Assembly: GCF_046347455.1 (NCBI RefSeq)
Contig: NZ_JAXMGC010000001.1
Location: forward strand, 509,241 to 573,240
Direction of reading: 5' to 3'
Length of the DNA stretch: 64,000 nucleotides
Source: Cellvibrio sp.
Lineage (GTDB): Bacteria > Pseudomonadota > Gammaproteobacteria > Pseudomonadales > Cellvibrionaceae
Position numbers and translations under genes: made by a program. Below the pieces are notes generated by a model. It had not been told where the DNA came from and made no database searches. It saw nothing but the letters and a program-made list of their open reading frames with translations. Shown piece after piece: positions 1,039-28,942 of the stretch; position 1 is the stretch's first letter; every line of letters begins with the position of its first letter.

Positions 1039-1110
1039 GAATCACCGCAGATGAAACATATACTTTTCTGGGATAACTATTTGATAAACCTATAGTTTAT
1101 TATCTTTTTT

Positions 1111-1170
1111 GCGTATACCTGCTCTTTCCGTTATTCTTAGTTATTGAATACTAGGGAGAGCGTATACATT
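1111..1170. repeat. two direct copies of GCGTATAC (1111-1118, 1160-1167) in the recombinase operon leader
   Basis: Read directly. The second copy extends to GCGTATACATT (1160-1170), which is the exact reverse complement of AATGTATACGC at 28803-28813. Confidence 0.5.
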
Positions 1171-2412
1171 ATGAATTACTCAATCAGAACATTTATTGCC
1201 GCTGATAATGACAAAATGGCTGTCCTCATCAATGATGAGGGCAGCCCTTTTTTTTGGGCAAACATATTTGTCAACTCTCAATACCGAAATACAGGAAAAT
1301 CACATAACACTTGCATAAAAGTTTTAAGATCATTGGGGATGCTTTACGCTTGGGCATCAATCCAAACTACCATTAAAGATTTAGATCAACGCTTAACAAC
1401 GGGAGAATTTCTCAACACTGATGAAATTGAGGAATTAGCTATATTCCTTCGCTGTAATGCAGAGTCACAAAACGCATACTTAAAAAAATCAAAGAACAAT
1501 CACAGGAATATTATTTCCTCTGAAAAAATTAGATATGCTAGAGAAACGAAGCACAAATCTATCACTGCAGGTAACCGCCATGAAGGCGCTAGTCGTATAC
1601 GCTGGATAGCAATGTATCTGGAATATCATAAAAGAAGACGAGTCAGTAAATCTGATATCAACGCAAATTCATTGGAAATTTTTAAATCCCTTGCAGAAAC
1701 AAGTATTAATTACTTACGATCATTAACACCAAGGGTACATCCTGCTGAAGACGACGAAAATCTTGAAGGACTTGACAGGAAAATAGTTACTATAATTAAG
1801 GAAGCACTACACCCAGGATCACCAAAAAATCCATTTAACTCAAATTTTATTAAACACCGTAACCTCATTGTATGGCTCCTTTTTTATGATACAGGGGCCC
1901 GTAGAGATGAAATCAGAAATATTAAAATTGATGATATTGACCGAATTACATGCCACACACGCATAAGAATATCTAAAACCATTCCTCGCACAGTACCGCA
2001 CTCACAAGAACTCTCAGATAGATTTCATAGATATATTTTAGACTATTGGTCGAAATTGCCTTTATCAAGTCGCAAGAAAGGCTACTTGCTGACAACAGAA
2101 AAAGGCGCGCACTTATCTAATAATTCGATCAATAAAATATTTAAAAATATTCGAGAAAATATCTTAGAGGTGCCAAATTTTTTATCCCCTCACTCGATGC
2201 GACGTACATGGAATGACCGTTTCAGTGAAATGATTGATAATAATCCAAATAAAATTTCTTCCGAACAAGAACAACAAATGCGCAATCGACTTATGGGTTG
2301 GTCGGATAATTCTCGCGAAGCCATAAGATATGCAAAAAGGCATATTAGAAAATCTGCCGATTCACATGCAGAATATCTCGCAAACAACCCATGGCAGCAG
2401 GGAAATAATTGA
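1171..2412 (+). CDS. tyrosine recombinase / integrase, first of trio (GinA-like)
   Basis: ATG 1171 is preceded by GGGAGAG (1155-1161); an alternative TTG lies at 1144. Recombinase boxes: TGARRDE, HSMRRTW, RYAKRH. Stop TGA 2410-2412 overlaps the next ATG. Confidence 0.8.
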   Translation: MNYSIRTFIAADNDKMAVLINDEGSPFFWANIFVNSQYRNTGKSHNTCIKVLRSLGMLYAWASIQTTIKDLDQRLTTGEFLNTDEIEELAIFLRCNAESQNAYLKKSKNNHRNIISSEKIRYARETKHKSITAGNRHEGASRIRWIAMYLEYHKRRRVSKSDINANSLEIFKSLAETSINYLRSLTPRVHPAEDDENLEGLDRKIVTIIKEALHPGSPKNPFNSNFIKHRNLIVWLLFYDTGARRDEIRNIKIDDIDRITCHTRIRISKTIPRTVPHSQELSDRFHRYILDYWSKLPLSSRKKGYLLTTEKGAHLSNNSINKIFKNIRENILEVPNFLSPHSMRRTWNDRFSEMIDNNPNKISSEQEQQMRNRLMGWSDNSREAIRYAKRHIRKSADSHAEYLANNPWQQGNN

Positions 2413-3848
2413 TGAATCGTCAACCTATTCCAATACCGGAAAGTCTTGTGATGGAGCAAGAAGTTATTCTCTTGGACGGGAGAGCAGTATTAATAAAAGC
2501 AGCGAACGAGCAAACTTTTACCACATCAGATGCAGGCAATTTTATAATCCATCTTGCATGGCTAAACACAGGATATGTTGTTCATAAAAACTGGTTTAAA
2601 GGTATCTGTAATCTAGCTGCAACTCATAGCCTGACCTATTTAGCCGTAACTTCCCGCGGATTAAAAATTTGGAATGATGAACTTAATCTGGTCTCAGATG
2701 ATGAAATATCCATTAATTCGATTAACCTATTATCTAAAATCCCCTCAAGCTATCATCCCTTTATAGTTCCGTTTCTTCGTCGCCAAATTTCAACTGGCCT
2801 GAAAGGAATTGACGAAGAAACAAGAGAATTTCTCCTAAAGGACTACAAATGGGAAGAAAAAGGTAATGGTTCGTATTTTTCATTAATAACCAATGACCCT
2901 GAATGTGGCGCATTAACTGATCAAGAATTGCATAGTCTTCACACAGAGTTAAATTACGCATTCAGCACCAACAAAATTGACATTTCTGCGTTCGCACTTA
3001 CATGGATGTTTATTGCTACTGGACTTCGGCCAATTCAAATCGCGCGCATGAAAGTCAAAGATGTACAAATCTTGGAAGGGCCAGAAGGCAAAGAAGTCAA
3101 TCTGCGCGTGCCACTTGCAAAAGGCGAACAAACAGCAAAACAATCATATTGGTGGCGTCGTGCTCCCAGCGTATTAGCAGAAATACTGATAACCTATATT
3201 GAGCAGCTTCAGTTAAGCACCGAAAAATCACTTTTTGAAGGAGTCTCAAGCACTTTATCAAATCGAATCACGACACTGTTTGACAAACTAAATACTTGGT
3301 CAGATAGATTAGAAAGCACCATTCCCATTACACCTTATCGATTCCGCTATACATTCGCGACAAGAGCGCTTCGCCAAGGAGCGTCTGATATGGAAGTAGC
3401 TCGTTTGCTCACTCACCGCAGCACAAGCTGTATCCAATTTTACCGAGCTTCCATGCCAGAACTACAAGAACCTATTCGGGAAAAAATCGGCCAGGAAATG
3501 GATTATTTTGCGCGAGCATTTAGGGGTAAGTTAATTGCTGATATAAGTGAAGCAACTCAACAAGATAAAGGCGCGAGTTTAATAAGGGATTTTATGCATC
3601 TCACAGGACAACAATTAGGTGCGTGTGGAACCCAAGCCAAATGTTATCAAAATGCTCCAATCGCCTGCTTGACCTGCAGTTACTTTGAACCATTTCGTGA
3701 AGCCCCATGGAATCAACTATTAAGTAAGCTCGAGGAAGATCAATCCAAAGAGCGTGAAGATCGCATAAAAATGATTACCCAAAATGCAATTGATGCAACA
3801 AAAGAAATCATTAGTTTACGTGATTTAAAAGGGGAAAATACAAAATGA
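2412..3848 (+). CDS. tyrosine recombinase / integrase, second of trio (GinB-like)
   Basis: ATG 2412 overlaps the upstream TGA (TGATG). Motifs: ATGLRPIQI, YRFRYTFAT, LLTHRSTSCIQFY. Confidence 0.8.
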   Translation: MNRQPIPIPESLVMEQEVILLDGRAVLIKAANEQTFTTSDAGNFIIHLAWLNTGYVVHKNWFKGICNLAATHSLTYLAVTSRGLKIWNDELNLVSDDEISINSINLLSKIPSSYHPFIVPFLRRQISTGLKGIDEETREFLLKDYKWEEKGNGSYFSLITNDPECGALTDQELHSLHTELNYAFSTNKIDISAFALTWMFIATGLRPIQIARMKVKDVQILEGPEGKEVNLRVPLAKGEQTAKQSYWWRRAPSVLAEILITYIEQLQLSTEKSLFEGVSSTLSNRITTLFDKLNTWSDRLESTIPITPYRFRYTFATRALRQGASDMEVARLLTHRSTSCIQFYRASMPELQEPIREKIGQEMDYFARAFRGKLIADISEATQQDKGASLIRDFMHLTGQQLGACGTQAKCYQNAPIACLTCSYFEPFREAPWNQLLSKLEEDQSKEREDRIKMITQNAIDATKEIISLRDLKGENTK

Positions 3849-5878
3849 ATATAATCACTTCTTTTCAGGGACACGCCGAATTAACAGCCCAGCAAAATCT
3901 TGAGAAATTTATTCAGCACGCCAAACAAAATTGTCCTCTAGACAACGTAGATTGGAATAGCGATATATGGGACGTAACAGAAATATGTAAAAAAGGTTAC
4001 CAAGGAAAAGGGAAAGCGTATGTATATTTTAAATCAGCAACAGATACAAAAAATTCAACCAAAATTACTACACCACTTCAAGAGCCATTTAAAAGTTTTG
4101 CTAAAGCTACCTTTTCTGAATATTTGCGAAAATACAGACCGGTGGAATATAAACGTCCTTTGTATGCTCTACAAACTTTAGAGCAAGCACTTATTCATTG
4201 CAAACAAATTCCTTGCATTACGAATCTTTCTACAGATGTTCTTGATACAACCAGTATTTTTTTAAAAGAGCGCTATCAAGATCCTTGGTTACTCGGAAAA
4301 CAACTTGAGAAGATTATAATAAATTTCATAGAACCTGCTCGGCTAAGCAATCAATTTCTCGATTGGAAGTCTCCTTTTAAATATAAAACACCTACCCGCA
4401 GTGATCGAGTAAACTCGAATGGCAACCACGAAAAACTTCCATCAGTACAAACAATTTTAGCACTCGCAGAAATCCATAACTCTTCACTATATACTCCAGA
4501 CAAAATAACAACCAGCTGGGTATGTCTAGCAATGCACGCACCAAGCAGAGTGACTGAAATTTTATCACTTTCAGTAAAGTGTGTTGTACAAGCGCAAGGC
4601 CCTAATCAAGTGGCAATGGGATTACGATGGCACCCAATTAAGGGGGGGCAACCTATCACAAAATTTGCTCTTTCTGACAATGCCGCCGCTCTCACTCAGA
4701 GTGCAATTAACTATCTTATTGATATTGGAGCAAATGCTAGAAAGGCCGCATCGTGGTATGAATTAAATCCAGGGCAACTATATCTTCCAGAAGGATTTGA
4801 GCATCTTCGAGATCAACCATTAACTCTATGCGAAATAACTAAAATACTAGGAAGAAGAAACCTAATTAAGAGTTCTTTTGCTGCAGAGACATGTAAATTT
4901 ATCAACGTAGGATTGACTACTGATAAATCCCGTTTCAATGAAGCACAAAACACAACAAGTGCAGCCATTTATTGCTTTAAATCAGTTGAACGCTGGGTTA
5001 ACGCCCAACTTCCAAAATCATTTCCTATAATTTGTAAGGCTAGCAATCTTAAATACAGTGACGCTTTATTCACACTTCCTAAAAACATTTTCAGACCACG
5101 TGCCGATACACTCGAATATGTCCCAGACACTGTATCTGTCAGCCAGATAAACCATCAACTAGGCGCACATCCAGCTGGCCTCACTGTATTCTTCAGAAAC
5201 AATAAAATCGACGAGGACGGCAATCCTTTAGAAATTACTTCCCATCAATTTCGGCACTTTTTAAATACTCTCGCGCAATCCAAGTACCTCAACCAATCAT
5301 TGATAGCGCTGTGGTCCGGCAGAAGAGATGTTAGCCAAAACAAATGGTACAACCACGTACCTCAAGAGGCGTTTATCGAAGCCTATCGACTCCTGCAAGC
5401 AGACGTGCCTGAGCCCGCGATCGAAGGCCCATTGAATGAAAAAACTAATACTATTGCAGACATCAATTTAATTACCAAAGCCGACGCAATTAAGCATGAA
5501 TTAGGAGCTATTCACGTAACTAGATATGGACTGTGCCGGCACGATTATTCTCTGACACCCTGCCCCAAAGACAAAGATTGCATTAATTGTGGTGAGCACT
5601 TGTTTACGAAAGGAGATAGAGCTCAGCTAGAAGAAGCAGAGACTCAATTGCAATTACTTCAAAATGCAGTACGGATAGCAACAGAAGCTTTAGAGAATGG
5701 TGAGCCAGGTGTAGAACGATGGTTGGAATTAAATCGACCAAAACTGGAGCGCTGGAAGCTGGCAGTCCAAAAACTAAAAGATCCAAACATTAAAGATTCA
5801 ACACTTATATCACTACCTAAAGTCCCCATGAGCCAAACGAAGACTGGACTGGCTTTCGAGATAGCAATGCAGCCGTAG
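3845..5878 (+). CDS. large tyrosine recombinase / integrase, third of trio (GinC-like)
   Basis: ATGA start/stop overlap at 3845-3848. Motifs: APSRVTEIL, SHQFRHFLNT, GRRDVSQNKWYNH. A Cys cluster (CRHDYSLTPCPKDKDCINCGEH) sits near the C-terminus. Confidence 0.8.
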   Translation: MNIITSFQGHAELTAQQNLEKFIQHAKQNCPLDNVDWNSDIWDVTEICKKGYQGKGKAYVYFKSATDTKNSTKITTPLQEPFKSFAKATFSEYLRKYRPVEYKRPLYALQTLEQALIHCKQIPCITNLSTDVLDTTSIFLKERYQDPWLLGKQLEKIIINFIEPARLSNQFLDWKSPFKYKTPTRSDRVNSNGNHEKLPSVQTILALAEIHNSSLYTPDKITTSWVCLAMHAPSRVTEILSLSVKCVVQAQGPNQVAMGLRWHPIKGGQPITKFALSDNAAALTQSAINYLIDIGANARKAASWYELNPGQLYLPEGFEHLRDQPLTLCEITKILGRRNLIKSSFAAETCKFINVGLTTDKSRFNEAQNTTSAAIYCFKSVERWVNAQLPKSFPIICKASNLKYSDALFTLPKNIFRPRADTLEYVPDTVSVSQINHQLGAHPAGLTVFFRNNKIDEDGNPLEITSHQFRHFLNTLAQSKYLNQSLIALWSGRRDVSQNKWYNHVPQEAFIEAYRLLQADVPEPAIEGPLNEKTNTIADINLITKADAIKHELGAIHVTRYGLCRHDYSLTPCPKDKDCINCGEHLFTKGDRAQLEEAETQLQLLQNAVRIATEALENGEPGVERWLELNRPKLERWKLAVQKLKDPNIKDSTLISLPKVPMSQTKTGLAFEIAMQP

Positions 5879-5928: not shown

Positions 5929-6321
5929 ATGGGCGCCCCAAAACTCAATGACAAAAATATTGAAAAAGCTGTAGAACTACTTGATGGCTGGACAGGAAAG
6001 TTAACATGGGAAAGATATCTAGCAATATTAGCTACTCAAATCAATCACAAGTACACCAAAGCTGCAATGCTTCGTCACGCTCGAATTAAAGATGCTTGGG
6101 ATCATGCAAAGAATAGATTACAAAGCACACCACAAGAAGGAGGATATGGCAACGCAGCTCTCAAGCAAGCAAAAGATAGAATCCACGAACTAGAAGAGCG
6201 AACCGCTCGACTAAAACGTGAAAATGATAAATTATTGGAACAATTTGTAAGGTGGGCTAATAACGCAATTCGTAAAGGACTATCCCTGGAAGACCTTGAT
6301 CAGCAAACTCCACGCCGCTGA
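5929..6321 (+). CDS. small helical protein following the recombinase trio (GinD-like position)
   Basis: 130 aa, same strand, 50 nt after the third recombinase. The C-terminal half looks coiled-coil (RIHELEERTARLKRENDKLLEQF). I recognise no catalytic motif. Confidence 0.55.
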   Translation: MGAPKLNDKNIEKAVELLDGWTGKLTWERYLAILATQINHKYTKAAMLRHARIKDAWDHAKNRLQSTPQEGGYGNAALKQAKDRIHELEERTARLKRENDKLLEQFVRWANNAIRKGLSLEDLDQQTPRR

Positions 6322-6384: not shown

Positions 6385-6636
6385 CTAGTTTTCCTCCCCA
6401 AGGGATTGAATTAATAGTGCTAGCCCTTCATGCGGATCTGCGCCTAACACCTGGCAGTATTTTACAAACTCCAGCAACTCAATTTTCTTTCGGCGTTGTT
6501 CTATCTTGCCCACAATCGAGTGATGGCGATTCATGATTTCGGATACTTCGCGCTGCGAGTAGCCACTCTTTCCTCGCTGTTCTTTCAGCCAAGTCTGGAG
6601 TTTTTCATAGTGAGGTGAATAAGGAGAGGATTTCAT
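6385..6636 (-). CDS. XRE-family helix-turn-helix transcriptional regulator
   Basis: 83 aa with an HTH signature (GYSQREVSEIMNRHHSIVGKIEQRRKKIELLEF). Divergent from the 6686-9599 operon across only 49 bp. Confidence 0.8.
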   Translation of the reverse strand: MKSSPYSPHYEKLQTWLKEQRGKSGYSQREVSEIMNRHHSIVGKIEQRRKKIELLEFVKYCQVLGADPHEGLALLIQSLGEEN

Positions 6637-6658
6637 TGCCCGGATGATAGAGACCGGC

Positions 6659-6679
6659 TAGAATGGCGCGAAATTCGCG
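6659..6679 (+). promoter_or_regulatory. candidate -10 (TAGAAT 6659-6664) followed by a 13-bp palindromic operator CGCGAA-A-TTCGCG (6667-6679)
   Basis: Perfect 6-bp inverted arms with a 1-nt centre, read directly in the 49-bp divergent intergenic region between the XRE gene and the helicase operon. Confidence 0.4.
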
Positions 6680-6685
6680 GCACAA

Positions 6686-7237
6686 ATGATAATTATTCCT
6701 ATGAAAGAGATTGCTTTGAAGTCTGAAATACTTGATGTATTGAAAGATATTAGTGTTACTTCATTTACGGTGGATGAGCTTACAGAGACTTACCTACAAC
6801 ATCCTTCAAGCTTGCATACGTCAAAAAAAGCAGCTCGGCAATTTGTATATCGTAATATGCAAAGGTTGATGAAAGTGGGTTATATGGAGCGTTTAAAAGC
6901 AGCTGGTAGATGGCCGCATTACGCGTTGACGCAGCAATTTATCCAGCTGTACAAAGCTACCCCCTCAGTCGCAATATCACCTTTTCCATCTGTAGATACA
7001 GATGCTGTGCAATTGAATACTGATCCACTGGCAAGCCTTAAAGAAAGACTAAAAGTACATCAAGCGGAAGTCTTGACTGCGATGGGCGAAATGGAGGAAT
7101 ACGAAGCAATTTGCCAAGAGATGCCAGATTTGCGTGAGATTGCTCAACCACGCTATAACGAGTCGCGCGAGCGTTGTTCACGATTACTGGGACGAGTAAA
7201 AGCATTGGAGAGCTTATTGGTAACAGAAGCGGGTTAA
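6686..7237 (+). CDS. hypothetical protein; possible winged-helix N-terminus plus coiled-coil C-terminus
   Basis: 183-aa ORF. The N-terminal segment RQFVYRNMQRLMKVGYMERL...GRWPHYALT resembles a recognition helix plus wing. The stop lies 2 nt before the helicase ATG. Start is uncertain (6686 or 6701). Confidence 0.5.
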   Translation: MIIIPMKEIALKSEILDVLKDISVTSFTVDELTETYLQHPSSLHTSKKAARQFVYRNMQRLMKVGYMERLKAAGRWPHYALTQQFIQLYKATPSVAISPFPSVDTDAVQLNTDPLASLKERLKVHQAEVLTAMGEMEEYEAICQEMPDLREIAQPRYNESRERCSRLLGRVKALESLLVTEAG

Positions 7238-7239
7238 TT

Positions 7240-8652
7240 ATGCGTCTGCGCCAGTGGCAGTCAAACTGCATTCGTAAAGCCTTAGTTCAATACACCAGTG
7301 GTCATCATCACTTCCTTTGTTTAGCAACGCCTGCCGCTGGAAAAACGCGAATGGCCGCCACACTGGCGGGATTACTGCTCCAAAAAAATAAAATTGATTT
7401 GGTTCTGTGCTTTTCTCCCTCCGTTATAGTCGCGACGGATTTTCAAAGTGCACTAGAACAACAAGTCCAATTGCCGATGGATGGTCGCTTGGGATCAAAG
7501 GGACAGTCGCTGACTTACCAATCCATGTTGACTCAGGATGAAAAATTTTGGTCATTGTTCGATAGGTACCGCATATTCGCTATCTTTGATGAGATTCATC
7601 ATTGTGCAGGCGATTCAGCAGACAATACCAATGCTTGGGGTCACCAAATTATTGAGCGCATTCAAGGGCGAGCCGCGTTTACTTTAGCTTTGACGGGTAC
7701 ACCCTGGCGTTCCGACCGTATTCCTATTTCCTTGGCAAATTACACATTAGAAGACAAAGTTCACTGCGACTTCGTATACGGGTTACGAGATGCGGTTAAG
7801 GATAATGTGTGTCGCGCTCCGGTGATTACGCTGGTGGATAATGATCGCATTCACATTCATCAAGGAAGTGAGGAGCAGATATTTACGTGCTTTGCTGACC
7901 TCCTGAAGCAGTCTGATTGTTCCTATCAGGAACTCATCAGAAACGAGGCATTAATTACCTATCTATTGGAGCAATCTTCAAAGAAGCTGCGTACGTTGCG
8001 CAAACAACACGCTGACGCTGGTGGGCTGATTGTGGCCGCCTCAGTGGAACACGCCTACAAGATTGCGGATATTTTGCAGCGTCGCTTGGGTGAAATAGCC
8101 GTGATTGCCACTTACATGGGCGAGAATCCGCAAGCCGCGATTACGACGTTCAGGGCGAGTAACGAACCCTGGATCATATCTGTTGGTATGGTGAGTGAAG
8201 GTACCAATATTCCTCGCTTGCGAGTGTGCTGTCATTTAACTCGCGTTAAAACTGAGCTGCATTTTCGACAAGTGTTGGGACGTATTTTACGCATGGATGG
8301 TATTCACCCTGGTGATAGCTACTTGTACGTTCCAGCTGAGCCCAGCTTGGCTGAATATGCCGGACGTATCATTGAAGAAATTCCAGACGCAGGCACCCTC
8401 CGTCGCGATGTTATGCCTTCGTTGTTGGTTGCAGACGATGTATCAAAACCCCAGGCTCAAAGTGAGCCGCCCAGTACTGAGATGGAACGATTGCATTTTG
8501 ATTTTGATAGTGCGCCATCTCCTTCAGTTGCGTCACAGGACATCAATCCAGCTCCACAAGGCACATTACTCGCAACCTATTACGAAGCCAATATCAATAT
8601 GTTTGGTCGTTTCCGGCAAGAATTGCTCACATTACAACGGCTCTGCGCCTAA
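7240..8652 (+). CDS. superfamily-2 DEAD/DEAH-box helicase (type III restriction Res-like core)
   Basis: Walker A ATPAAGKT, motif II FDEIHH, motif III LTGTPWR, motif VI QVLGRILR. ATG 7240 lies just after the upstream stop, so the 7174 start in the ORF track is an overlapping extension. Confidence 0.8.
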   Translation: MRLRQWQSNCIRKALVQYTSGHHHFLCLATPAAGKTRMAATLAGLLLQKNKIDLVLCFSPSVIVATDFQSALEQQVQLPMDGRLGSKGQSLTYQSMLTQDEKFWSLFDRYRIFAIFDEIHHCAGDSADNTNAWGHQIIERIQGRAAFTLALTGTPWRSDRIPISLANYTLEDKVHCDFVYGLRDAVKDNVCRAPVITLVDNDRIHIHQGSEEQIFTCFADLLKQSDCSYQELIRNEALITYLLEQSSKKLRTLRKQHADAGGLIVAASVEHAYKIADILQRRLGEIAVIATYMGENPQAAITTFRASNEPWIISVGMVSEGTNIPRLRVCCHLTRVKTELHFRQVLGRILRMDGIHPGDSYLYVPAEPSLAEYAGRIIEEIPDAGTLRRDVMPSLLVADDVSKPQAQSEPPSTEMERLHFDFDSAPSPSVASQDINPAPQGTLLATYYEANINMFGRFRQELLTLQRLCA

Positions 8653-8661
8653 GGTATTTCC

Positions 8662-9081
8662 ATGAAAGCTCCGACTGATGCCATTCAAGAAGTGGCTGGT
8701 ATGCTTTACGAAACTGGAATCTTTTGTGACTTTGGTATCGATGAATCACTTTTGCCTGCCATGATTGATATGGCAAAAACACGCTACCCCAACAGAGCTA
8801 TTAGGGCTGTTAAGAGCTGGATGTGGTGGGACTTTGAAGTATCAGAGGAAACTCGTGGTCTTTTCCAAGAAAATGGAATACAGCCAGCTATCGTTTTTGC
8901 TCATTATTTGATTTGGGACAGCAGCAGGCGTTTCCAAGAAGGTTGGAATGTCAAAACCACGGCATTGGTCAGGTTTGAAGAAAACTGTTTTTTTATAACG
9001 CGTAATACCGCCTATATTCTAGTGGGCAAAGGACATCGGAAAACTGTCGATCCGCAAGCAGCAGCAAGCTTGCATTTCTAA
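8662..9081 (+). CDS. hypothetical protein (139 aa), no recognisable motif
   Basis: ORF starts 10 nt after the helicase stop on the same strand. No antisense gene competes for the region. Confidence 0.5.
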   Translation: MKAPTDAIQEVAGMLYETGIFCDFGIDESLLPAMIDMAKTRYPNRAIRAVKSWMWWDFEVSEETRGLFQENGIQPAIVFAHYLIWDSSRRFQEGWNVKTTALVRFEENCFFITRNTAYILVGKGHRKTVDPQAAASLHF

Positions 9082-9122
9082 AGCGTAATGATGCTTGTGG
9101 ATGACTTAAATATCAGGACTTT

Positions 9123-9731: not shown

Positions 9732-10010
9732 TCACTCACTATCAGGACTACTTGCGCACTTCTTGCTGCTGCACTCACTTTGGGGGGATGGGCAACAATG
9801 TTTCCTTGCTTGGTACTTGCGATAAAGTAGATATCCAAGGCCGAATAAAAAAAGTGGCAGAACGCATTTCAGTATCTCAGTTGTAGTGCTACTCAGTAAG
9901 AGCGTCAGTCCTGCACCTCCAACGAATAAGGAGTACAGGGGGACACTACAACAACCAACACAGGCGATAATCGCAGCAATGGTTAGCCATACAGACTTGG
10001 GCTTATTCAT
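9732..10010 (-). CDS. MerF-like two-TM metal transporter with vicinal cysteine pairs
   Basis: ATG 10010 is preceded by AAGGAG. 92 aa with two hydrophobic helices. There is a CC pair in TM1 (CVGCCS) and in the tail (RKHCCPSP), the same layout as MerF. It sits under a MerR-type promoter. Confidence 0.55.
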   Translation of the reverse strand: MNKPKSVWLTIAAIIACVGCCSVPLYSLFVGGAGLTLLLSSTTTEILKCVLPLFLFGLGYLLYRKYQARKHCCPSPQSECSSKKCASSPDSE

Positions 10011-21000: not shown

Positions 21001-21124
21001 TGTCGGGAACAGCATCAATTGGAAGACGTTGGTAATTCCATACACCAACACCTGCTACAACCAACACTAAAAACAATACTAACCAACGGCGAGAAATGGA
21101 AAATTTTAGAAGTGCATCAATCAT
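18011..21124 (-). CDS. czcA: heavy-metal efflux RND pump, CzcA family
   Basis: 1037 aa with 12-TM RND topology and the HME-type motif DFGLIVDGAVIIVEN. Confidence 0.9.
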   Translation of the reverse strand: MIDALLKFSISRRWLVLFLVLVVAGVGVWNYQRLPIDAVPDITNVQVQINTAAPGYSPLEVEQRITYLVEVAIAGLPNVEETRSLSRYALSQVTVVFKDGTDIYFARNLINERLQQAKSQMPQGIEPGMGPVATGLGEIFHYAVHADSKARQANGQPYDATALRTLQDWVIRPQLRLVPGVTEINTIGGFEKQFHITPNPAKLLAYGITFENVVEALKKNNVSVGAGYIEKNGEQYLIRAPGQVSDIPSIEQIILAHRGKLPVTIRDVADVSFGKQLRTGAATRDGAETVLGTAVMLLGGNSRTVSEAVSAKITEINKTLPEGVTAEPVYNRTILVNKTIATVQKNLLEGAILVVVVLLVMLGNVRAALLTAMVIPLSMLMLMTGMVQTKVSANLMSLGALDFGLIVDGAVIIVENCIFRLAGRQHHLGRNLNLDERFQIVFSATREVFTPSLISVLVVILVNLPILALTGVEGKMFSPMAMTVIMALIAALILSLTFVPAAVALLLSGHIEEKENIIVRKAKQGYTGVLDFALRLRKPILAGAVVFVLISGFIATRMGTEFIPNLDEGDVAVQALRIPGTSLTQSLDMQFQVESAVMKVPEVKTFFSRVGTAEVASDPMGPNISDGYVMLKDKKEWPTPHRTKAEVLEDIESKLALVPGNAYEISQPIQLRFNELISGVRSDLGIKIYGEDLEQLLASGNQIASVLNGIKGADSVKVEQVDGLPILSVEAIRPALLRYGLNMTDVQQTLSIATGGEEAGQIFDGDKRFDLVVRLPEKLRNDLTALSRLPIPLADGGYVPLGEVAKLKIAPGANQISRENGKRRLVVSANVKDRDLGGFVAEVQQKVEQQVKLPPGYWVRYGGTFEQLQSASKRLSVLVPITLLAIFALLMMTFGSAKDALLVFSGVPLALTGGVISLWICGIPLSITAGVGFITLSGVAVLTGVMMVSAFRDGLKEGKSIDVAISEGAMMRLRPILMVALVAALGFLPMALNTGTGAEVQRPLATVVIGGIISSTLLTLLVLPGLYRMAFRPVSKS

Positions 21125-21181
21125 GACGTCACCTCCTTGTTAACCATATTTTTCCGGAAGGAAAGAATACTAATGCAGAAA

Positions 21182-22153
21182 TTATTCATGTTCAGCACCG
21201 TCCTTTCCTAATTCAGCTTTGATGATGAAACTGTTTTTGCTGGCATAGGTTTCACCCGCTTTAACACCACCGAGAACTTCGCTGACCTCACCATCTGTAC
21301 GGCCCACTTTTACTGGGCGCGGCTCAAAGCCTTTTTGTCCCTTAACAAATACAACTTGCTTACCTTCGTGATCTTGTAAAGCCTCATTACGAATCGTTAA
21401 AGCAGCAGTTTTTTTTGCAAGCACGACATCAGCATTCACGAAAAGACCCGGTGTCCATTCATGCTCAGCATTCGCTAATAACACGCGAGCAGTTAAGGAT
21501 TGATTTGTACTGGAACCTAGGGCCGACACTGAAATAATTTCGCCTTCGCCAGTAAGGTCACTTGATGGATTGGTAACTTTTACGGTTTGTCCAACACGAA
21601 TTTTTGCAGCATCGCGAGGGAAAATTGCAACATCCACCCAAACACTCGAAAGGTCTGCAATGACAAATACTGTTTTATCCGTAGTTTGCTCACCAACGTT
21701 AATATGTCGTTCTGCAATGACACCACTGATCGCTGACGTAATCGAATAGGTTTTTAAGCTCTCGTTACTTTCAACGGTTGCTAAGACTTCACCTTCTCTT
21801 ACAGCGTCGCCAACTTTTTTATTCACGGTGCGCACAGTGCCAACAAAACGTGCTGCAACACGTTGAATTTTTTCACCATTAGCATCGACCGTACCGTAAA
21901 GCGAAATCGTTTCACGAATGTCGGCAGGTCCAACTTGCGCAAGACCAATTGCCGCTGTTTTCAATTGCTCATTTGTTAAGGCTGCGGCTTTTTCTTCATG
22001 TTCTTCCGCTTGTTCCTGCTTAGCAGAACCTTTTGGTTCTTCTTTGGCTGCATTTGCCAATGAAATACCAATTAACGCAACGCTCAAAAATCCTATTTGC
22101 AAAAGATTCTTTGTAGATAATTTTTTTTGTACAACTTTTAAAAATGATTTCAT
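21182..22153 (-). CDS. czcB: RND efflux periplasmic adaptor (CzcB-like membrane fusion protein)
   Basis: Signal/anchor sequence followed by lipoyl and beta-barrel-like repeats. It sits between the TolC-like and CzcA genes, and its start overlaps the czcC stop. Confidence 0.8.
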   Translation of the reverse strand: MKSFLKVVQKKLSTKNLLQIGFLSVALIGISLANAAKEEPKGSAKQEQAEEHEEKAAALTNEQLKTAAIGLAQVGPADIRETISLYGTVDANGEKIQRVAARFVGTVRTVNKKVGDAVREGEVLATVESNESLKTYSITSAISGVIAERHINVGEQTTDKTVFVIADLSSVWVDVAIFPRDAAKIRVGQTVKVTNPSSDLTGEGEIISVSALGSSTNQSLTARVLLANAEHEWTPGLFVNADVVLAKKTAALTIRNEALQDHEGKQVVFVKGQKGFEPRPVKVGRTDGEVSEVLGGVKAGETYASKNSFIIKAELGKDGAEHE

Positions 22154-23463
22154 GGATTAACCCCGGAATTTTGTGCGGTGGTGGCAGTGCCACTGAGACG
22201 TTCAATTTCAGCGCGCAGCAAATGCGCATTTGCCGCTGCATCAATTAATGCAGATTCGGCTTCTAACAATTCACGCTGGGCAGTACTAAGTTCGAGATAG
22301 CCATAGCGACCTTTGTCGAATGCTGCTCGTGTACCGCTCACCGCTTTTTTTAATTGGGGAATAACATCGTTGCGTAAGCTTTTGATTTCAAAAAGTGCAG
22401 CCTGACGCTCCTGGTAAAGACCTGCCAATTGCGCGCGCATTTGAAGCAATGCCACTTCACGCTCGTTATCAACACTTAAACGATTTGCTCTTGCGGTCGC
22501 GACTTCGCCCGCTGCTCGACTGCTTCCAAAAAGAGGGACGGTAACGCCAACAACGACAGCTGAATCTTTGCTGGCTTGCAGGCGACGTACACCTGCATTC
22601 CATTCAAGATCTGCCTTACGCTGACTGAGAGCCAAACGAACTTCCGCGTCTCTCAAACGTGCTTCGTTTGCAAAGAGCAGAATGTCAGGACTATCCGAAA
22701 GTTGAGTCAGAAGTTCGTTAAGAGGGAGAGAATCACCAGTACTGAGAAGATCGGCATTTACCGAGGTGAAAGTTGGTTCAGTAGTACCCCACATAGCAGA
22801 CAATTTGATTCGTGCAGCATCGAAATTTAACTCCGCCTGCTTTAACTCAATGGCTGTGCGAGATTGGTTGGCTTGGGCACGCGCTAGCTCCGCATCAGGA
22901 GTATTCCCTGCATCTACTCGACGCTTGATTGATGCAGTTGTCTCAGTAGCAAGCGAAAGTGTGGATTGGCGTAAACCGAGCTGCTGCTGTGCGGTGGCAA
23001 CATCAATAAAACGGCGTGTTACCTCTGACAGCAAATCCAATTCGATAATGCGTTGCTGAACCGCCAAGCCTTGCTGGCGCTCAGTAACGACACCCATACG
23101 AGCTTCACGTTTATCACCCAGCTCAATAATTGATGACAAGGCAAGCGTGACTTCGGCACTTTTGGTTCCGGAGTAATCACCGGTTCCGGCAGCGTTTTCA
23201 ACCGTTGCACCAACCCGTAAAGCGGGTCTCAAGGCTGCGGTTTGAAGCTCTCCCTCAAGGGCTTGTCTGCGAAATTGGAAACTACTGAGTTGAGGGTTTT
23301 GGGCGAGAGTTGCCGTGACAGCATCCCGCAAAGATAACTTACTGCCTGAGGCAGTCTTGGTATCAGCCGTTGTTTGGGCTGAAACTTGAATAGCAGACGA
23401 ACAGAATAACAAGGTCGCTATCAGCGCGAACCTGATTCGAAAAAGGGACATAATGAACTCCAA
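22150..23463 (-). CDS. czcC: TolC-family outer-membrane factor (CzcC-like)
   Basis: Signal peptide and duplicated long coiled-coil repeats typical of OMFs. 4-nt overlap with czcB. Confidence 0.8.
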   Translation of the reverse strand: MEFIMSLFRIRFALIATLLFCSSAIQVSAQTTADTKTASGSKLSLRDAVTATLAQNPQLSSFQFRRQALEGELQTAALRPALRVGATVENAAGTGDYSGTKSAEVTLALSSIIELGDKREARMGVVTERQQGLAVQQRIIELDLLSEVTRRFIDVATAQQQLGLRQSTLSLATETTASIKRRVDAGNTPDAELARAQANQSRTAIELKQAELNFDAARIKLSAMWGTTEPTFTSVNADLLSTGDSLPLNELLTQLSDSPDILLFANEARLRDAEVRLALSQRKADLEWNAGVRRLQASKDSAVVVGVTVPLFGSSRAAGEVATARANRLSVDNEREVALLQMRAQLAGLYQERQAALFEIKSLRNDVIPQLKKAVSGTRAAFDKGRYGYLELSTAQRELLEAESALIDAAANAHLLRAEIERLSGTATTAQNSGVNP

Positions 23464-23539
23464 CTAATGCGCAGATGCGCAAACACGCTACTAGCCATGT
23501 CGCTTAGCGAGCAAAAGCCAATAACACAACAAATGGAAC

Positions 23540-23926
23540 TTAGTGGGAGTTTTTAGGTGGAGCGCGAAGCGGCGGGCGTAAGCCTGTTACGGTCAGCCAA
23601 GCTGAGGGCGTATTGGAAAGATTGTAGTGTTGACCACGGATAACGGGCCATACAAATACAAGAAATAACGCTAGTGCCAGAAAGGGTAAATCGAGGTTGA
23701 ATACCTTGATCGCGCTGGCCTGGGCAGGGTTATTATCAACATCGATATGCACTTTGCCCAAGGCATTGTGATCAACATCTGGACCATCTACAACATCAAA
23801 ATGAACCGATACTGGAGGCTCACCACCGTCAAAGCAATAGTGCCCGTGCATCCCGGTCAAACTGGCGATAAACCAGATGAGCAATGCGATATAGGCATAT
23901 TTTTTGTGATGGACCAGTTTTTTCAA
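23540..23926 (-). CDS. His-rich membrane protein, first gene of the czc-like operon
   Basis: 128 aa with an N-terminal TM, HGHYCFDGGEPPVSVHFD and DVDHNALGKVHIDVD segments, and a second TM. Confidence 0.45.
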   Translation of the reverse strand: MKKLVHHKKYAYIALLIWFIASLTGMHGHYCFDGGEPPVSVHFDVVDGPDVDHNALGKVHIDVDNNPAQASAIKVFNLDLPFLALALFLVFVWPVIRGQHYNLSNTPSAWLTVTGLRPPLRAPPKNSH

Positions 23927-24242: not shown

Positions 24243-25349
24243 ATGGATCAATTGATGAATGAAAAACAGCCTTTTCGGGTCTTATGTCTTGACGGTGGAG
24301 GAATGCGCGGTGTTTACCAGTCCGCGTATTTAAACACTTTCGCATCAAGACTTGCTGGTTTAGATGGTGGAAAAACAATAGACGTTGGCAAGAGCTTTGA
24401 TCTCATTGTAGGAACAAGTACAGGAGGAATAGTTGCCTGCGCGTTGGCCGCTGGAGTGCCATTACAGCAGGTTCGTGATCTTTATTACAAAGAAGGTCAT
24501 AAAATTTTCCCCCATCAATTTATTCGCCATATTCCATTACTTGGAAGCCTTGCTATAAGAGGGCTTGGCATTGGTTTATCCGCAGGTAATGACGCTCTGA
24601 AAGCTGCGCTTAATACTGCTTTTAATACTCAAACAGTTGATGAAGTCTATAAAAAACGAGGAATCGCATTTGCAATTCCTACATTAGATATCAATAGACA
24701 TTCTGCCGTCGTTTTTAAAACCCACCACCTATCTCGTTTAAATGGACGTGATAACTCCCGAACATTAGTCGATGTTTGTCTTGCAACCTCAGCAGCACCA
24801 ATGCTTCGCTCTATGGCCAAACTCATCGAACCTAGTAGTGCAGGAACGTCAACAACCGCTGTGTACATAGACGGCGGATTATGGGCAAACAATCCAGGCG
24901 CTCTTGGAATGATTGAAGCGTGTGAAATTCTTCAAGATAGAAACGAAGTTCGACCTATCCATTTATTTATGTTGGGATCTTTACCCTCCCAAGGAGGCGA
25001 AGAAATTTCCGATGCAAAACTACATCGAAATTCGTTTGGTTGGGGAGTAGGTATAAAAGCTATTGAAGCAAGTCTTAATGCTCAAGCTGTTGGCTATGAT
25101 TATATTTCATCGAAAATTGCATCACTTCGAAACGATGGAAGCTTTGCATATCGAATGCCCGCGCAATGCCCCTCAAATGAACTTAGAAACTATTTAAAAA
25201 ATTTAGATGACGCACGACATAAAGCACTGAATGCGCTGGAACGTCAAGCAATATCCGATGTGGATTGGGCTTGGGCGCAAATGAATACTACAAATCCCAC
25301 GAATCGCATGCAGTCTTTCAGGGATGCATTGATGACTACACTTAATTAA
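24243..25349 (+). CDS. capV: CBASS effector: patatin-like phospholipase (CapV-like)
   Basis: Oxyanion motif DGGGMRG, nucleophile elbow GTSTGG, and catalytic Asp in [11 protein letters not shown]. Confidence 0.85.
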
Positions 25350-25362
25350 ACAAAGAGGACTG

Positions 25363-26412
25363 ATGCAAATGGCAGAGATAGATTGTAATAAAGACTTACG
25401 CGCTTACCACAATGAAAAAGTTACATTGGGTAAATCCGATCAAGATACGATGCGTAGTCGTCGCGATTCTGGCCGCACACGTTTACGAAATGGTTTAACC
25501 AGACTAGAGAAACCAGTACCAGAAAAAATTGAATCTCAAGGCTCCTACAGCATGAAAACCATGGTGCAGGATGACGCATGTGAATATGACATTGATGATG
25601 GGGTTTACTTCAAACCCGAAGATCTCACGTGGCTAGTTGTTTTTGAGCTATCACCCGCAGATGCACGTGCTCGTGTTTGTGAAGCACTGTCGGATGATGA
25701 GCGTTTGAAAAGTCCCGCTGAAGTGAAACGAAATTGTGTGCGCCAAACTTATCCGCAGGGTTACCATATCGACTATCCCGTTTACCGAATCAAAACAGAA
25801 ACAAACAGCGATGGAAATGAAGAAGAATATTTTGAATTAGCAAGCGGTGATGACTGGGTTCGATCAGATGCACGAGCAGTTACGAGTTGGTTTAATGGTC
25901 ACGTGACCAACCTTAATTCCGGTGAGGTTAATGACGGTAGCCAACTACGTCGAGTTGTAAGATACACAAAAAAGTTTGCACGTAGCGTAGCTGACTGGAA
26001 AGAAAAAACAGCATCAGGCATAACTATTACAAAGTTAGTTGTTGATTATTTCCAGTCGAGCGATGGCAGAGATGATCTTGCTATTCGAAATACTTGGAAA
26101 GCCATAAAGAAAGCTTTAGATGCTTCCACTGAAGTAAATCATCCCGTATTAAAAGACACAAAACTATCAGGAAAAGATGATGACGCAGTAACTTTTTTCA
26201 AAGATAAATTAGCTTGGGCACTCAAAGAACTCAATGTGCTCGATGAAAAGGATTGTTCGCATAAAAATGCGTTAGAAGCCTGGGATATAGTTTTTAGTGC
26301 TTCTTTTTTTGCAGCACGAGCTACAGAAGATACCAAGTCTCAGAAGTCAGCTTTTGTGGTAACACCCTCAAAAGTTTCAGAGCGTAATGATGATGGTGGT
26401 CGATTCGGTTAA
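25363..26412 (+). CDS. CBASS cGAS/DncV-like nucleotidyltransferase (CD-NTase)
   Basis: Pol-beta NTase signature QGSYSMKT...EYDIDDG with a later HIDYP acidic site. The C-terminus ends GGRFG. It lies between the patatin and Cap2 genes. Confidence 0.8.
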   Translation: MQMAEIDCNKDLRAYHNEKVTLGKSDQDTMRSRRDSGRTRLRNGLTRLEKPVPEKIESQGSYSMKTMVQDDACEYDIDDGVYFKPEDLTWLVVFELSPADARARVCEALSDDERLKSPAEVKRNCVRQTYPQGYHIDYPVYRIKTETNSDGNEEEYFELASGDDWVRSDARAVTSWFNGHVTNLNSGEVNDGSQLRRVVRYTKKFARSVADWKEKTASGITITKLVVDYFQSSDGRDDLAIRNTWKAIKKALDASTEVNHPVLKDTKLSGKDDDAVTFFKDKLAWALKELNVLDEKDCSHKNALEAWDIVFSASFFAARATEDTKSQKSAFVVTPSKVSERNDDGGRFG

Positions 26413-28118
26413 TGAATCCAAGTCAATCACTGCTCGTACAAAATATTGGAGCTGTTTTAAATAGCCAATTACCGGCGCGTTGGTCATTAGTTCCTACAAC
26501 CAACGCGCCCAGTATTAAACGGTCTTTAAATCTGCTTGCGGCAATATGGCGTGTCGAGTTTATTGAGGGTGATATTACATACCCAAATGTTACCCATCTT
26601 TTTGTTGCTATCGACAATCAGTATCCTAGAACTCAGCCAATAATATGGCTGCCTCAATATGTGCATGGGAAAAGTAAACGTTGGCCGCACATCGATATTT
26701 ATGGAAATCTTTGTCTTCCTAAATCATCTATGGCAGACGATCCTGCTCAGCGAGTTATTCAGCATCTTGCGTGGGCACAAAGCTTGTTAAACATGGATCC
26801 CATTAATAGACGCAAGGATTTTGCGAGAGAAGCTGCTGCTTATTGGGATCAAGCTCACGATAACAAAGAAAAAATTTATAGCCTGCTCTCTCTTAATGCA
26901 GAAAGCCGTTTAATCGTTTACTCAGTAGATAATCATCAAACTTTTTTTGCTGCAGATACCCCTGAAGAGCTTACTCAATACTTAAAAAATCTTCGTAGTA
27001 CCGAGAAATCAGCACAAATTTATCCAGGTTACCTATTATGGTTGGATAGTCCTTGGCTCCCGGATGAATTTCCCGTATTTGGTAGCGATCTATTAAATTT
27101 AATTCCTAAAAATATATTAGATCAAATACTGGTGGCCGGAAGAGACTGCTTAATTGTTATAGGGGCAAAAACTGACAATGGAATTATTTTTTTGGCATCG
27201 TTATTAAGAAGTCAAAAACTATCGGAAGCCATGCGAGGTTTTAGAACAACCTCAAAACTTCCTACTATGCTTGTCCATAAAGCTTTTACTACAAAAAAAA
27301 TTCTTAAAGCCAATGTGTCTAGAATTGATGGAGCTTGGGTGCATGGACGAGATCATGATCCAAACTATGAAACTTTACATCACAAAAAAGTGGTGATATG
27401 CGGATGCGGTTCGTTAGGTGCATCGGTAGCCCGGTTACTAGCGCAAGCTGGGGTGGGTACAATTCATTTAATCGATAATGATACAGTTGCATCTCATAAT
27501 GCATCGCGTCATATATTAGGCGTGGGAAGCTCTGGTGCGAGCAAAGTAACATCACTACGAAAACTTTTGCTTGCTGATTTTCCTCACATGTTAGAAGTTA
27601 CTGCACATCATAAAAAATTTGAAACATTAACGCAGCAAGAATTGGAGCTGATACAAGGTGCCGATGTAATTGTGAGCGCCGGTATCGATATTTCAGGGGA
27701 CTTATTTTTGGATGAATGGAGAAGAACTCACAGCAATGAATCAGTACATGTTTGCGCATGGGCAGAAGCTTTTGCCGTTGCAGGACACGCCGTCGCCTTA
27801 TTTAATGACGATAGTGTGAGCGCTATGTTTGATGAAAATATGGAGATTATTTTTAGGTCATGCGACGTTCCCGAAAGCGCGAACCATTTAGTTGCTATGG
27901 CAGGTTGTGGTGATGTATTTCAGCCACATGGTGCTATCGAACTTCAGTCAACCGTCAATATTGCAGCTCGAATTGTTATTGATATCCTTATGAATAAAGT
28001 TGCAAATTCAACGCGACGAACTTGGTTTGGAAATCGAGATGAAGCATTGCAGCGTAATCTAATACCTAGAGCAGACTTTAATGATGATTCATGTATTAAA
28101 GACTTTCCATGGCACTAA
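26412..28118 (+). CDS. cap2: CBASS Cap2: E2-like plus E1 (ThiF/UBA-like) fusion
   Basis: The ATG overlaps the CD-NTase stop (TAATG). N-terminal E2-like HIDIYGNLCLP. E1 Rossmann motif ICGCGSLGASVARLLAQAGVGTIHLIDND. Confidence 0.85.
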   Translation: MNPSQSLLVQNIGAVLNSQLPARWSLVPTTNAPSIKRSLNLLAAIWRVEFIEGDITYPNVTHLFVAIDNQYPRTQPIIWLPQYVHGKSKRWPHIDIYGNLCLPKSSMADDPAQRVIQHLAWAQSLLNMDPINRRKDFAREAAAYWDQAHDNKEKIYSLLSLNAESRLIVYSVDNHQTFFAADTPEELTQYLKNLRSTEKSAQIYPGYLLWLDSPWLPDEFPVFGSDLLNLIPKNILDQILVAGRDCLIVIGAKTDNGIIFLASLLRSQKLSEAMRGFRTTSKLPTMLVHKAFTTKKILKANVSRIDGAWVHGRDHDPNYETLHHKKVVICGCGSLGASVARLLAQAGVGTIHLIDNDTVASHNASRHILGVGSSGASKVTSLRKLLLADFPHMLEVTAHHKKFETLTQQELELIQGADVIVSAGIDISGDLFLDEWRRTHSNESVHVCAWAEAFAVAGHAVALFNDDSVSAMFDENMEIIFRSCDVPESANHLVAMAGCGDVFQPHGAIELQSTVNIAARIVIDILMNKVANSTRRTWFGNRDEALQRNLIPRADFNDDSCIKDFPWH

Positions 28119-28141
28119 AACTATGGAGTTAACCATTATTT

Positions 28142-28615
28142 ATGTTGGAGCTTAAAGCGGTAAATAGTAGCTTTACACAAAGTGTGTCAATACAAGCACA
28201 AGTTATTAAGTATCTTTCACAACATCGTCAATTACATGCAAGAAGTTTGGAGGCTGGTGGGCAATTATTTGGAGTCGTAGATCCAGATTCAATTATTATT
28301 ACCTGTGCTACAGGTCCTTACTCAAAAGACGACCGCGGTCCACGTCACTATAGATCTGATGCGATGAGCGCTCAGTCTGAAATTAAGCAACAAGCAAAAT
28401 TTGGTAATGTGTATTTAGGTGAGTGGCATACCCATGCCGAAAAAGTACCTAGAGCTTCTGGGCACGATATTGATGCAATGAGACGATTAATGAAGAGTTC
28501 CAATCTCGCCACAAATGGTTTGTTGATGGTTATTTTAGGTCAGGGATTGGATAAGGGGGGAATAAGTGTTTACTCGTACATGGATGGAAAGCTTCTCCAT
28601 TGGGATATTGAGTAA
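28142..28615 (+). CDS. cap3: CBASS Cap3: JAB/JAMM isopeptidase
   Basis: Upstream Glu (LEAGGQLFG) and an exact JAMM motif H-x-H-x7-S-x2-D in WHTHAEKVPRASGHD. Confidence 0.85.
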   Translation: MLELKAVNSSFTQSVSIQAQVIKYLSQHRQLHARSLEAGGQLFGVVDPDSIIITCATGPYSKDDRGPRHYRSDAMSAQSEIKQQAKFGNVYLGEWHTHAEKVPRASGHDIDAMRRLMKSSNLATNGLLMVILGQGLDKGGISVYSYMDGKLLHWDIE

Positions 28616-28932
28616 TCATTGCGAAAGCTTGCATATGGCTAATTTAAAAGCTATTAGATAGCTAAGTAATCAAAATTATTTATGGCATATATCTAGTGCT
28701 TCAAAAATATTATAACACCACATGTTGTGCCCAAAGGATACTTCCAATATAGTGCCTATCAAAGCGGATACTTTAGTCAAAAATATTAATGAAAAAATAT
28801 TCAATGTATACGCTATATGATTTAGAGGCAGCTTTATTACTCACATTATATTGATTTATAAGGACATTTTATAATGTATACGGATTTGCGTTAGATATAA
28901 TGCCAGTAAAGTTCTTGCATAGCCCAGCAGCA
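28616..28932. repeat. ORF-free AT-rich island tail containing several short repeat families
   Basis: TCAAAAATATTA occurs twice (28701-28712, 28777-28788). GTGCC..AAAG(C)GGATACTT occurs twice (28727-28743, 28752-28773). AATGTATACG occurs twice (28803-28812, 28873-28882). Confidence 0.6.
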
Positions 28933-28942
28933 AGATGATAAA

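Follow-up and report, generated by a model that had tools for sequence, protein, structure and literature searches.

A probable GInt element at the nrdA stop codon of a Cellvibrio sp., with metal-efflux and type II CBASS cargo

The DNA analyzed here is a 64,000-nt stretch of a Cellvibrio sp. genome (contig NZ_JAXMGC010000001.1, positions 509,241 to 573,240 of the forward strand), hereafter the window, in which an island of 27,871 bp separates nrdA, encoding the large subunit of ribonucleotide reductase, from tRNA-Leu(CAA) and the flagellar genes beyond it. We assign this island, with high confidence, to the GInts (genomic islands carrying three integrase genes), and within these to a sub-family whose target is the final nrdA codons. 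GInts comprise a ginABCD operon, cargo, and an AT-rich 3' end, with imperfect direct repeats on the flanks; the cargo, of 2.5-70 kb, starts just past ginD, the repeats are 10-17 nt long and are hybrids of attB and attI, and excision yields a circle, for which all four gin genes are required (Bardaji et al. 2017).

Organization of the locus

The left edge of the window holds the 3' part of the target gene nrdA (4-1038, + strand; Pfam Ribonuc_red_lgC, E = 5e-90), whose last codons, TGC CAA, form the attL core together with the stop codon. The element itself occupies 1039-28909, its ends being fixed by comparison with the empty site of the genome L012 (see below), and it begins with four genes on the + strand, all of them intact: (i) ginA (1171-2412), encoding a tyrosine recombinase of 413 aa, counted from the ATG, with a full catalytic set; (ii) ginB (2412-3848), encoding a tyrosine recombinase of 478 aa with a C-terminal Cys cluster; (iii) ginC (3845-5878), encoding a large recombinase-fold protein of 677 aa; and (iv) ginD (5929-6321), encoding a small helical protein of 130 aa and lying 50 nt downstream of ginC. 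Behind this operon come 22.3 kb of cargo (6322-28615), and then an AT-rich 3' end without open reading frames (28616-28900, + strand). Host DNA resumes at 28910-29220 (+ strand), where the displaced nrdA terminator (a hairpin at approximately 28943-28966), the tRNA-Leu promoter region, and tRNA-Leu(CAA) (29134-29220) are found, the latter 225 nt past the right end and outside the element; flhB and a flagellar cluster follow.

An earlier, sequence-only reading of this DNA had proposed an island between nrdA and tRNA-Leu that was AT-richer than its flanks, with overlapping stop/start codons in its operon, a 130-aa reading frame 50 nt further on, and about 22 kb of mosaic cargo ending in an AT-rich tail free of reading frames. 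Both overlaps are present as described (TGATG at 2410-2414 for ginA/ginB, ATGA at 3845-3848 for ginB/ginC), as are the small gene and the cargo of mixed genes, and composition agrees with the claim: G+C content is 29% in the tail (28616-28908) and 41.6% over the island, versus 46.4% in the 35 kb to its right, though the cargo is a mosaic of blocks at 37-47%. The ends given in that reading, 1049 and 28938, had to be moved, the left one lying 10 nt inside the element and the right one 29 nt too far, in host intergenic DNA.

Integration site and empty site

An unoccupied version of the site, which the sequence-only reading had suggested seeking by alignment of the nrdA to tRNA-Leu interval among relatives, is present in L012, a related Cellvibrionaceae metagenome-assembled genome. 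It was the best match in an FlhB scan of one genome per species (FlhB 95% identical at the amino acid level, approximately 82% nucleotide identity), by which the host is placed as an uncultured member of this family. There, the end of nrdA lies approximately 420 bp from flhB, the NrdA C-terminus is 99% identical over 86 aa, and the order is nrdA...GAGGCTTGCCAATAA, 26 nt, the same terminator hairpin AAAGGCGACTTTCGAGTCGCCTTTTTT, tRNA-Leu, and flhB, without interruption. The L012 flanks align to window positions 778-1037 and 28940-32774. Because L012 has the empty site, the whole interval is best read as one insertion of approximately 27.9 kb, and the location between nrdA and tRNA-Leu holds.

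Alignment with the L012 attB, TGCCAATAA, places the attL core TGCCAATAG at 1030-1038 (+ strand), overlapping the nrdA stop codon, which has changed from TAA to TAG with the NrdA protein left unchanged. The attR core TGCCAGTAA lies at 28901-28909 (+ strand), where host sequence resumes with TAAAGTyCT, common to the L012 attB. The two cores thus form a 9-nt direct repeat with 7 of 9 positions identical. This core is also that of the GInts at the nrdA end of P. aeruginosa PA_D16 (TGCCAGTGA), with the shared form TGCCA(A/G)T(G/A)(A/G); the published repeats of those elements are TGCCAGTGAGCCCG on the left and TGCCAGTGATCGCG on the right (Bardaji et al. 2017, Table S3).

Exact-protein look-up of FlhB returned one contig, in which the island is also present, while that of FliQ returned a strain 97% identical; its contig breaks off 20 nt beyond where the terminator lies and is uninformative on occupancy. 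In two more distant Cellvibrionaceae-like metagenome-assembled genomes with FlhB 86-91% identical (L013 3973-4152; L014 11219-11366), the tRNA-Leu segment by flhB is inverted relative to the window and nrdA is not adjacent; since these differ, the nrdA-tRNA-Leu-flhB arrangement appears limited to close relatives.

Assignment to the GInt family

The Gin proteins of the window were compared in all-against-all BLASTP searches with the proteins of three reference elements, i.e., the GInt of E. coli O157 Sakai (ECs_3512-3509), the operon on P. aeruginosa plasmid pCHUAC_01_IMP, and the strand-biased circularizing integrative element (SE) SE-Pda04Ya311 on pAQU1. Sakai ginC and ginD appear in Additional file 10 of Idola et al. 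2023, and WP_062842454 (GinC) and WP_062842455 (GinD) of pCHUAC_01_IMP in the orthologue list of the same paper. Every window Gin protein matched its cognate Gin alone. Against the Sakai proteins, E values were 2e-22 for GinA (ECs_3512), 3e-13 for GinB (ECs_3511), 7e-21 for GinC (ECs_3510), and 2e-14 for GinD (ECs_3509); identities to the pCHUAC_01_IMP operon were 39% for GinA, 48% for GinB, 46% for GinC (full length, WP_062842454), and 59% for GinD (WP_062842455). In the same searches, no window Gin protein matched IntA, Tfp, IntB, or Srap of SE-Pda04Ya311 (all E > 0.2). SEs carry intA-tfp-intB-srap, and they and the GInts are distinct groups (Idola et al. 2023); judged by sequence and gene order, the operon described here is a gin operon and not that of an SE.

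A gin operon, integrase cores, cargo, an AT-rich 3' end, direct repeats, and site-specific insertion with an empty site are thus all found in this island. The earlier assignment to the GInts gains from the cognate homologies in the same gene order, the empty site, the published core, and the AT-rich tail, and we consider it very probable that the island is a GInt of the sub-family targeting the last nrdA codons. It is a clear yet fairly ordinary new example of a GInt, with cargo types already reported for these elements.

Catalytic residues of the Gin proteins

The sequence-only reading had credited three consecutive reading frames with the Arg, H-x-x-R, and Tyr boxes of tyrosine recombinases. 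For ginA this stands, its product scoring 45.2 bits against Pfam Phage_integrase (PF00589; cut-off 27.1 bits), with R244, K269, H341, R344, W377, and Y387 invariant in 8 sequences. The GinB product is also above the cut-off (40.5 bits; 236 bits against NCBIfam NF041502 integrase_1, below the 350 cut-off), but it does not have the H-x-x-R box: a Tyr stands in place of the His (Y-R-F-R), and the second Arg alone is the conserved catalytic one. Residues R206, K237, R312, H335, and Y344 are invariant in 7 GinB sequences. From Arg to Tyr the spacing is 32 residues in both GinB (R312-Y344) and GinC (R470-Y502), and that of GinB matches the spacing in Cre and XerD.

For ginC, the Pfam match by itself is weak (18.3 bits, E = 0.002) and below the cut-off, and it is the family alignment and the structure model that speak for a recombinase. 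Among 5.8 billion proteins searched, 163 were GinC relatives at E <= 1e-10, mostly annotated as "hypothetical protein" or "integrase." In alignments of 33 and 49 sequences, the former including Sakai GinC, R235 (in APSRxxEIL), K266, R470, W490, R493, and Y502 are invariant, and H467 is kept in at least 90% of the aligned sequences; the set also holds P. aeruginosa GinC, and P. syringae Tox-island GinC was left out of it. Likewise invariant is a Cys/His cluster, C564-x-H566-x6-C573-x5-C579-x2-C582. The AlphaFold2 model of GinC (mean predicted local distance difference test score 82.6) has Cre, IntI, Tn1549 Int, and XerH as leading PDB matches, with the Tyr-bearing segment 485-520 modelled at low confidence. 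GinC has been remarked to be without the first Arg (Bardaji et al. 2017) and without an RHRY motif or catalytic tyrosine (Idola et al. 2023). Contrary to these remarks, GinC looks catalytically competent within the aligned set, and its full catalytic set may be a new point. The C-terminal Cys/His clusters of GinC and GinB, both past the recombinase domain, look like a zinc-binding module; in the GinB cluster, C419 and C422 are the only invariant members.

Hexamers at the element ends

The left end of the element (1039-1170, + strand) contains ATATAC at 1058-1063 and GTATAC at 1113-1118 and 1162-1167, with 3 nt between the last of these and the start codon of ginA. In the AT-rich 3' end, GTATAC is found at 28806-28811 and 28876-28881, the latter copy being exactly 19 nt from the attR core. 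Four of the six GTATAC copies of the 64-kb window therefore fall in the two ends (1113, 1162, 28806, and 28876). Over the window as a whole, GTATAC is not over-represented (6 found versus 6.8 expected), and only its clustering at the ends and its fixed spacing are meaningful. When attL and attR are aligned for five elements, each side shows a GTATAC-like hexamer within the element, at a distance of exactly 19 nt from the core: ATATAC on the left and GTATAC on the right in the window, GTATAC and GTATCC in the metagenomic locus L092, GTATAC and GTATAT in L003 (pCHUAC_01_IMP), and GTATAC on the left in both L099 (Acinetobacter junii) and L105 (P. rhodesiae), for which the right side is not captured. 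The arrangement core-N19-RTATAC occurs once in the window versus 0.01 expected. In four of the five nrdA-targeting elements, another GTATAC immediately precedes the start of ginA. Those GInts that target ssb or glmS instead have GTAAAC repeats, lying between the attL region and ginA (L101 3860-4280; L102 4040-4210), one copy of which abuts the ginA start. Tandem or nested GInts were also considered and rejected, there being no internal pair of core and hexamer in the window.

These hexamers would be putative binding sites for Gin proteins. Such self-recognition hexamers may be new, because no common feature for GInt self-recognition was found in the earlier work (Bardaji et al. 2017). Tentatively, and with less than even confidence in the combination, we propose that the self-recognition site consists of a 9-bp crossover core plus inverted clade-specific hexamers at 19 nt, and that GinC is an active recombinase. 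The hexamer may then be GTATAC in nrdA-targeting elements or GTAAAC in ssb- and glmS-targeting ones, with further copies inward. Were both parts true, the GInt synapse would contain three distinct catalytic tyrosine recombinases.

Related elements at the same target

Besides the element of the window, four related GInts were located at the stop codon of nrdA. Elements lying directly after nrdA, with GinC 44-48% identical to that of the window, were found in L092 (metagenome), L099/L100 (a metagenome-assembled genome of Acinetobacter junii), and L104/L105 (P. rhodesiae). Where GinC is 30-38% identical, the targets are others: the element follows ssb in L102 (Cupriavidus) and glmS in L101 (Pseudoalteromonas). 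Target choice thus appears to track Gin phylogeny, because the nrdA group has GinC at 44-48% and the ssb/glmS group at 30-38%.

A metagenome scan with GinC gave two loci. In L092 (7179-13615), a 6.4-kb GInt with one cargo gene, of the endonuclease/exonuclease/phosphatase family, lies between nrdA and nrdB, and its core and hexamer spacing are the same as in the window. On pCHUAC_01_IMP (L003 5152-10798), a cargo-less GInt of 5.6 kb is inserted inside strB (aph(6)-Id), splitting the strA-strB pair; it sits at TGCCAATGA, which by chance resembles the core at the nrdA stop codon. What the element recognizes is a short sequence, not the nrdA gene. The A. junii element (L099 9884-16061) carries a type II cyclic-oligonucleotide-based anti-phage signalling system (CBASS) approximately 30% identical to that of the window, and the P. 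rhodesiae element (L105 9568-16103) a reverse transcriptase-trypsin gene (retron-like) plus an OLD-TOPRIM/UvrD pair (Gabija-like).

Proposed mechanism and activity

On the model of the homologous GInts that Bardaji et al. 2017 tested, GinA, GinB, GinC, and GinD would jointly recombine the attI of a circular form with TGCCAATAA, the site at the nrdA stop in the chromosome. The predicted attI has the layout ...GTATAC-N19-TGCCAGTAG-N19-ATATAC..., and its junction would read ...TATAATGTATACGGATTTGCGTTAGATATAATGCCAGTAGGAATCACCGCAGATGAAACATATAC..., with A or G allowed at core positions 6 and 9. The products would be attL (TGCCAATAG) and attR (TGCCAGTAA), with NrdA unaltered. In the reverse reaction, a 27.9-kb circle would be released, leaving a restored attB predicted as ...GATTGCGAGGCTTGCCAATAAAGTTCTTGCATAGCC.... 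All DNA from ginD to the 3' end would travel as a passenger, i.e., the Zn/Cd/Co-type efflux genes, the type II CBASS, and the helicase/nuclease cluster.

We infer that the element may still be active, and that GinC may be catalytically active. Metagenome contigs 100% identical to the window (loci L094-L098; SRR14234068-74 and SRR32608997) begin at 995-1008, approximately 30 nt (one k-mer) before attL; contigs break at the attL junction in three samples, and several of the identical contigs end exactly at 6630, after the helix-turn-helix gene. These breaks fit branch points of the assembly graph and hint at a mixture of occupied and empty alleles, together with variable cargo after the helix-turn-helix gene.

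Weighing of alternative explanations

Three observations weigh against the assignment to an nrdA-targeting GInt as set out above. The 9-nt repeat falls slightly short of the 10-17 nt given in the literature; the empty site is that of a sister species (L012, approximately 82% nucleotide identity) and is not an allele of the same species; and ginA contains a hairpin resembling an intrinsic terminator, which might limit gin expression. This hairpin (1218-1255, + strand; inside ginA codons 16-29) has a 13-bp perfect stem followed by T8, with a folding free energy of -24.5 kcal/mol and a z score of -4.4. As a general GInt feature it was rejected: it is absent from 6 related ginA genes and is hence specific to this lineage.

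The island could instead be a GInt-derived one that is now fixed, with cargo added or rearranged in place, so that the 28 kb would not be one moving unit. The mosaic cargo (blocks of 37-47% G+C) would suit such a history, as would the ginA hairpin, the orphan flgB-like cargo gene near the host flagellar cluster, and the metagenome contigs that stop at 6630, which suggest alternative downstream sequence in co-occurring populations. However, both ends are intact and have the same architecture as in the short relatives L092 and L003, the four gin genes are intact as well, no att-like core paired with GTATAC is found internally, and published GInts normally have mosaic cargo; we therefore regard a fixed island as unlikely.

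SEs are common in free-living Gammaproteobacteria, the class to which the present host belongs, and move in a copy-out-like manner (Idola et al. 2023). An SE would have superficially the same layout, with four genes at the left end, the third encoding a large protein and the fourth a small one. Yet the Gin proteins match their GInt cognates and not the core proteins of SE-Pda04Ya311, the second gene, unlike tfp, keeps the codons for the catalytic Arg, Lys, Arg, His, and Tyr, and the ends are a direct 9-nt core rather than terminal inverted motifs of 13-19 bp (C and C'). That the island is an SE is accordingly very improbable.

A recombinase-in-trio (RIT) element, named as the alternative in the sequence-only reading, might be suggested by the three tyrosine-recombinase genes of the island, which lie side by side and overlap at their stop and start codons. 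As reportedly defined by Ricker et al., RIT elements have three adjacent recombinases of ordinary size and long terminal inverted repeats, usually without cargo. Here, by contrast, long terminal inverted repeats are absent, no inverted match of one end to the other exceeds 12 nt, those of 12 nt being GTATAC-centered and subterminal (matches of at least 12 nt arose in 4 of 200 trials with shuffled ends), the proteins measure 413, 478, and 677 aa, a fourth gene (ginD) and 22 kb of cargo follow, and the homology is to GinABCD, all of which leaves a RIT element with hardly any credibility. Equally implausible is a classical integrase island targeting tRNA-Leu, which the tRNA-Leu(CAA) 225 nt past the right end might suggest: the tRNA with its promoter region, and likewise the terminator of nrdA, lie outside the insertion and are unchanged in L012, no duplicated tRNA 3' fragment is found in the window, and the repeats are the nrdA stop-codon core.

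Comparison with known systems

The nearest known systems to the present GInt are GInt_1 and GInt_2 of P. aeruginosa PA_D16 and the related gin operon of the P. aeruginosa plasmids pCHUAC_01_IMP and NZ_CP045917, with which it shares the ginABCD order (39-59% identity to the plasmid operon). The PA_D16 elements share its target, i.e., the last codons and stop of the gene for the ribonucleotide reductase alpha subunit, as well as the core, and P. aeruginosa GInts have GTATAC hexamers at both ends, as here. Several features set it apart from these: an uncultured Cellvibrionaceae host versus Pseudomonas, metal-efflux and CBASS cargo versus antibiotic-resistance genes, the lineage-specific ginA hairpin, and the hexamers at 19 nt, where ATATAC is on the left and the perfect GTATAC on the right, the reverse of the relatives.

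With GInts in general, also called the Tn6571 family (the Tox island/Pht-PAI of P. syringae pv. phaseolicola, the P. stutzeri DSM 4166 GInt, and Sakai ECs_3509-3512), it has in common the tripartite structure, ends marked by imperfect direct repeats, insertion at a gene end that leaves the product unaltered, and defence cargo, whereas protein identities are 21-30% and the targets are others (an ABC transporter gene, ssb, and more). SE-6283, SE-6945, and SE-Pda04Ya311 resemble it in having four genes at the left end that encode two to three tyrosine-recombinase folds and a small protein, and in site-specific insertion, Gammaproteobacteria hosts, and the lack of mobilization genes; they differ in showing no detectable sequence similarity (BLASTP against SE-Pda04Ya311), in that the non-catalytic protein is the product of the second gene, and in having imperfect inverted repeats as ends. 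Tn554 (tnpA, tnpB, tnpC) also combines an ordinary and a large tyrosine recombinase with a small protein of approximately 125 aa and site-specific insertion, but it has two recombinases, not three, and Firmicutes hosts. A weak similarity between GinD and TnpC has been reported (Bardaji et al. 2017).

Our analysis takes the lineage of nrdA-targeting GInts beyond Pseudomonas, into Cellvibrionaceae and Acinetobacter, and indicates that this lineage repeatedly carries anti-phage systems, here with metal resistance alongside. Its main value lies in the att site at base-pair resolution, the conserved hexamer spacing, and the evidence for a full catalytic set in GinC. The base-pair boundaries and the predicted attI junction are directly testable. 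The hexamer-N19-core-N19-hexamer layout and the GinC residues provide hypotheses on how GInts recognize their own ends, a question left open by Bardaji et al. 2017.

Cargo genes

The combination of metal resistance and anti-phage genes proposed for the island in the sequence-only reading is borne out by cargo blocks 3 and 4, encoding CzcCBA with a P1B ATPase and a type II CBASS, respectively. In block 4 (24243-28615, + strand), a CapV patatin phospholipase, a DncV-like CD-NTase, Cap2 (E1/E2), and Cap3 (JAB) are encoded, with PADLOC E values of 1.7e-90 for the effector, 8.4e-132 for the cyclase, 4.3e-137 for E1-E2, and 6e-45 for JAB, and with Pfam in agreement; CD-NTase, effector, Cap2, and Cap3 in one operon define type II. 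E. coli GInts that carry defence systems, among them CBASS, are already on record. The metal-efflux block 3 (15164-23926, - strand) encodes a Zn/Cd/Pb-type P1B ATPase (15164-17209; TIGR01525, 527 bits), a P-II-like protein, CzcA (18011-21124; TIGR00914, 1529 bits), CzcB, CzcC (22150-23463), and a 128-aa unknown, with Pfam matches to ACR_tran, HlyD_D23, and OEP.

Block 1 (6385-9599), annotated by Pfam, starts with an XRE-type helix-turn-helix regulator (6385-6636, - strand), followed by genes for a 183-aa unknown, a superfamily 2 helicase (ResIII/Helicase_C), a DUF6957 protein, and a DEDDh-like exonuclease. PADLOC matches in this block are weak (PbeA-like, 1.9e-7; DEDDh, 2e-7), and the four-gene cluster next to the regulator (6686-9599) could be a candidate, and perhaps undescribed, defence module. 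Block 2 (9732-14845) includes a ZntR/CadR-like MerR regulator (10102-10515) and a YnfA membrane protein, which together span 10102-10858; the stretch 11129-14845 holds unknowns, a zinc-ribbon protein, a histidine kinase of QseC type (13002-14378), and, at 14450-14845, an orphan FlgB-like gene. This last gene, on the - strand, encodes a FlgB-like rod protein (TIGR01396, 116 bits versus a cut-off of 59) and adjoins the kinase gene, which has no neighbouring response regulator; the flagellar cluster of the host lies just outside the island.

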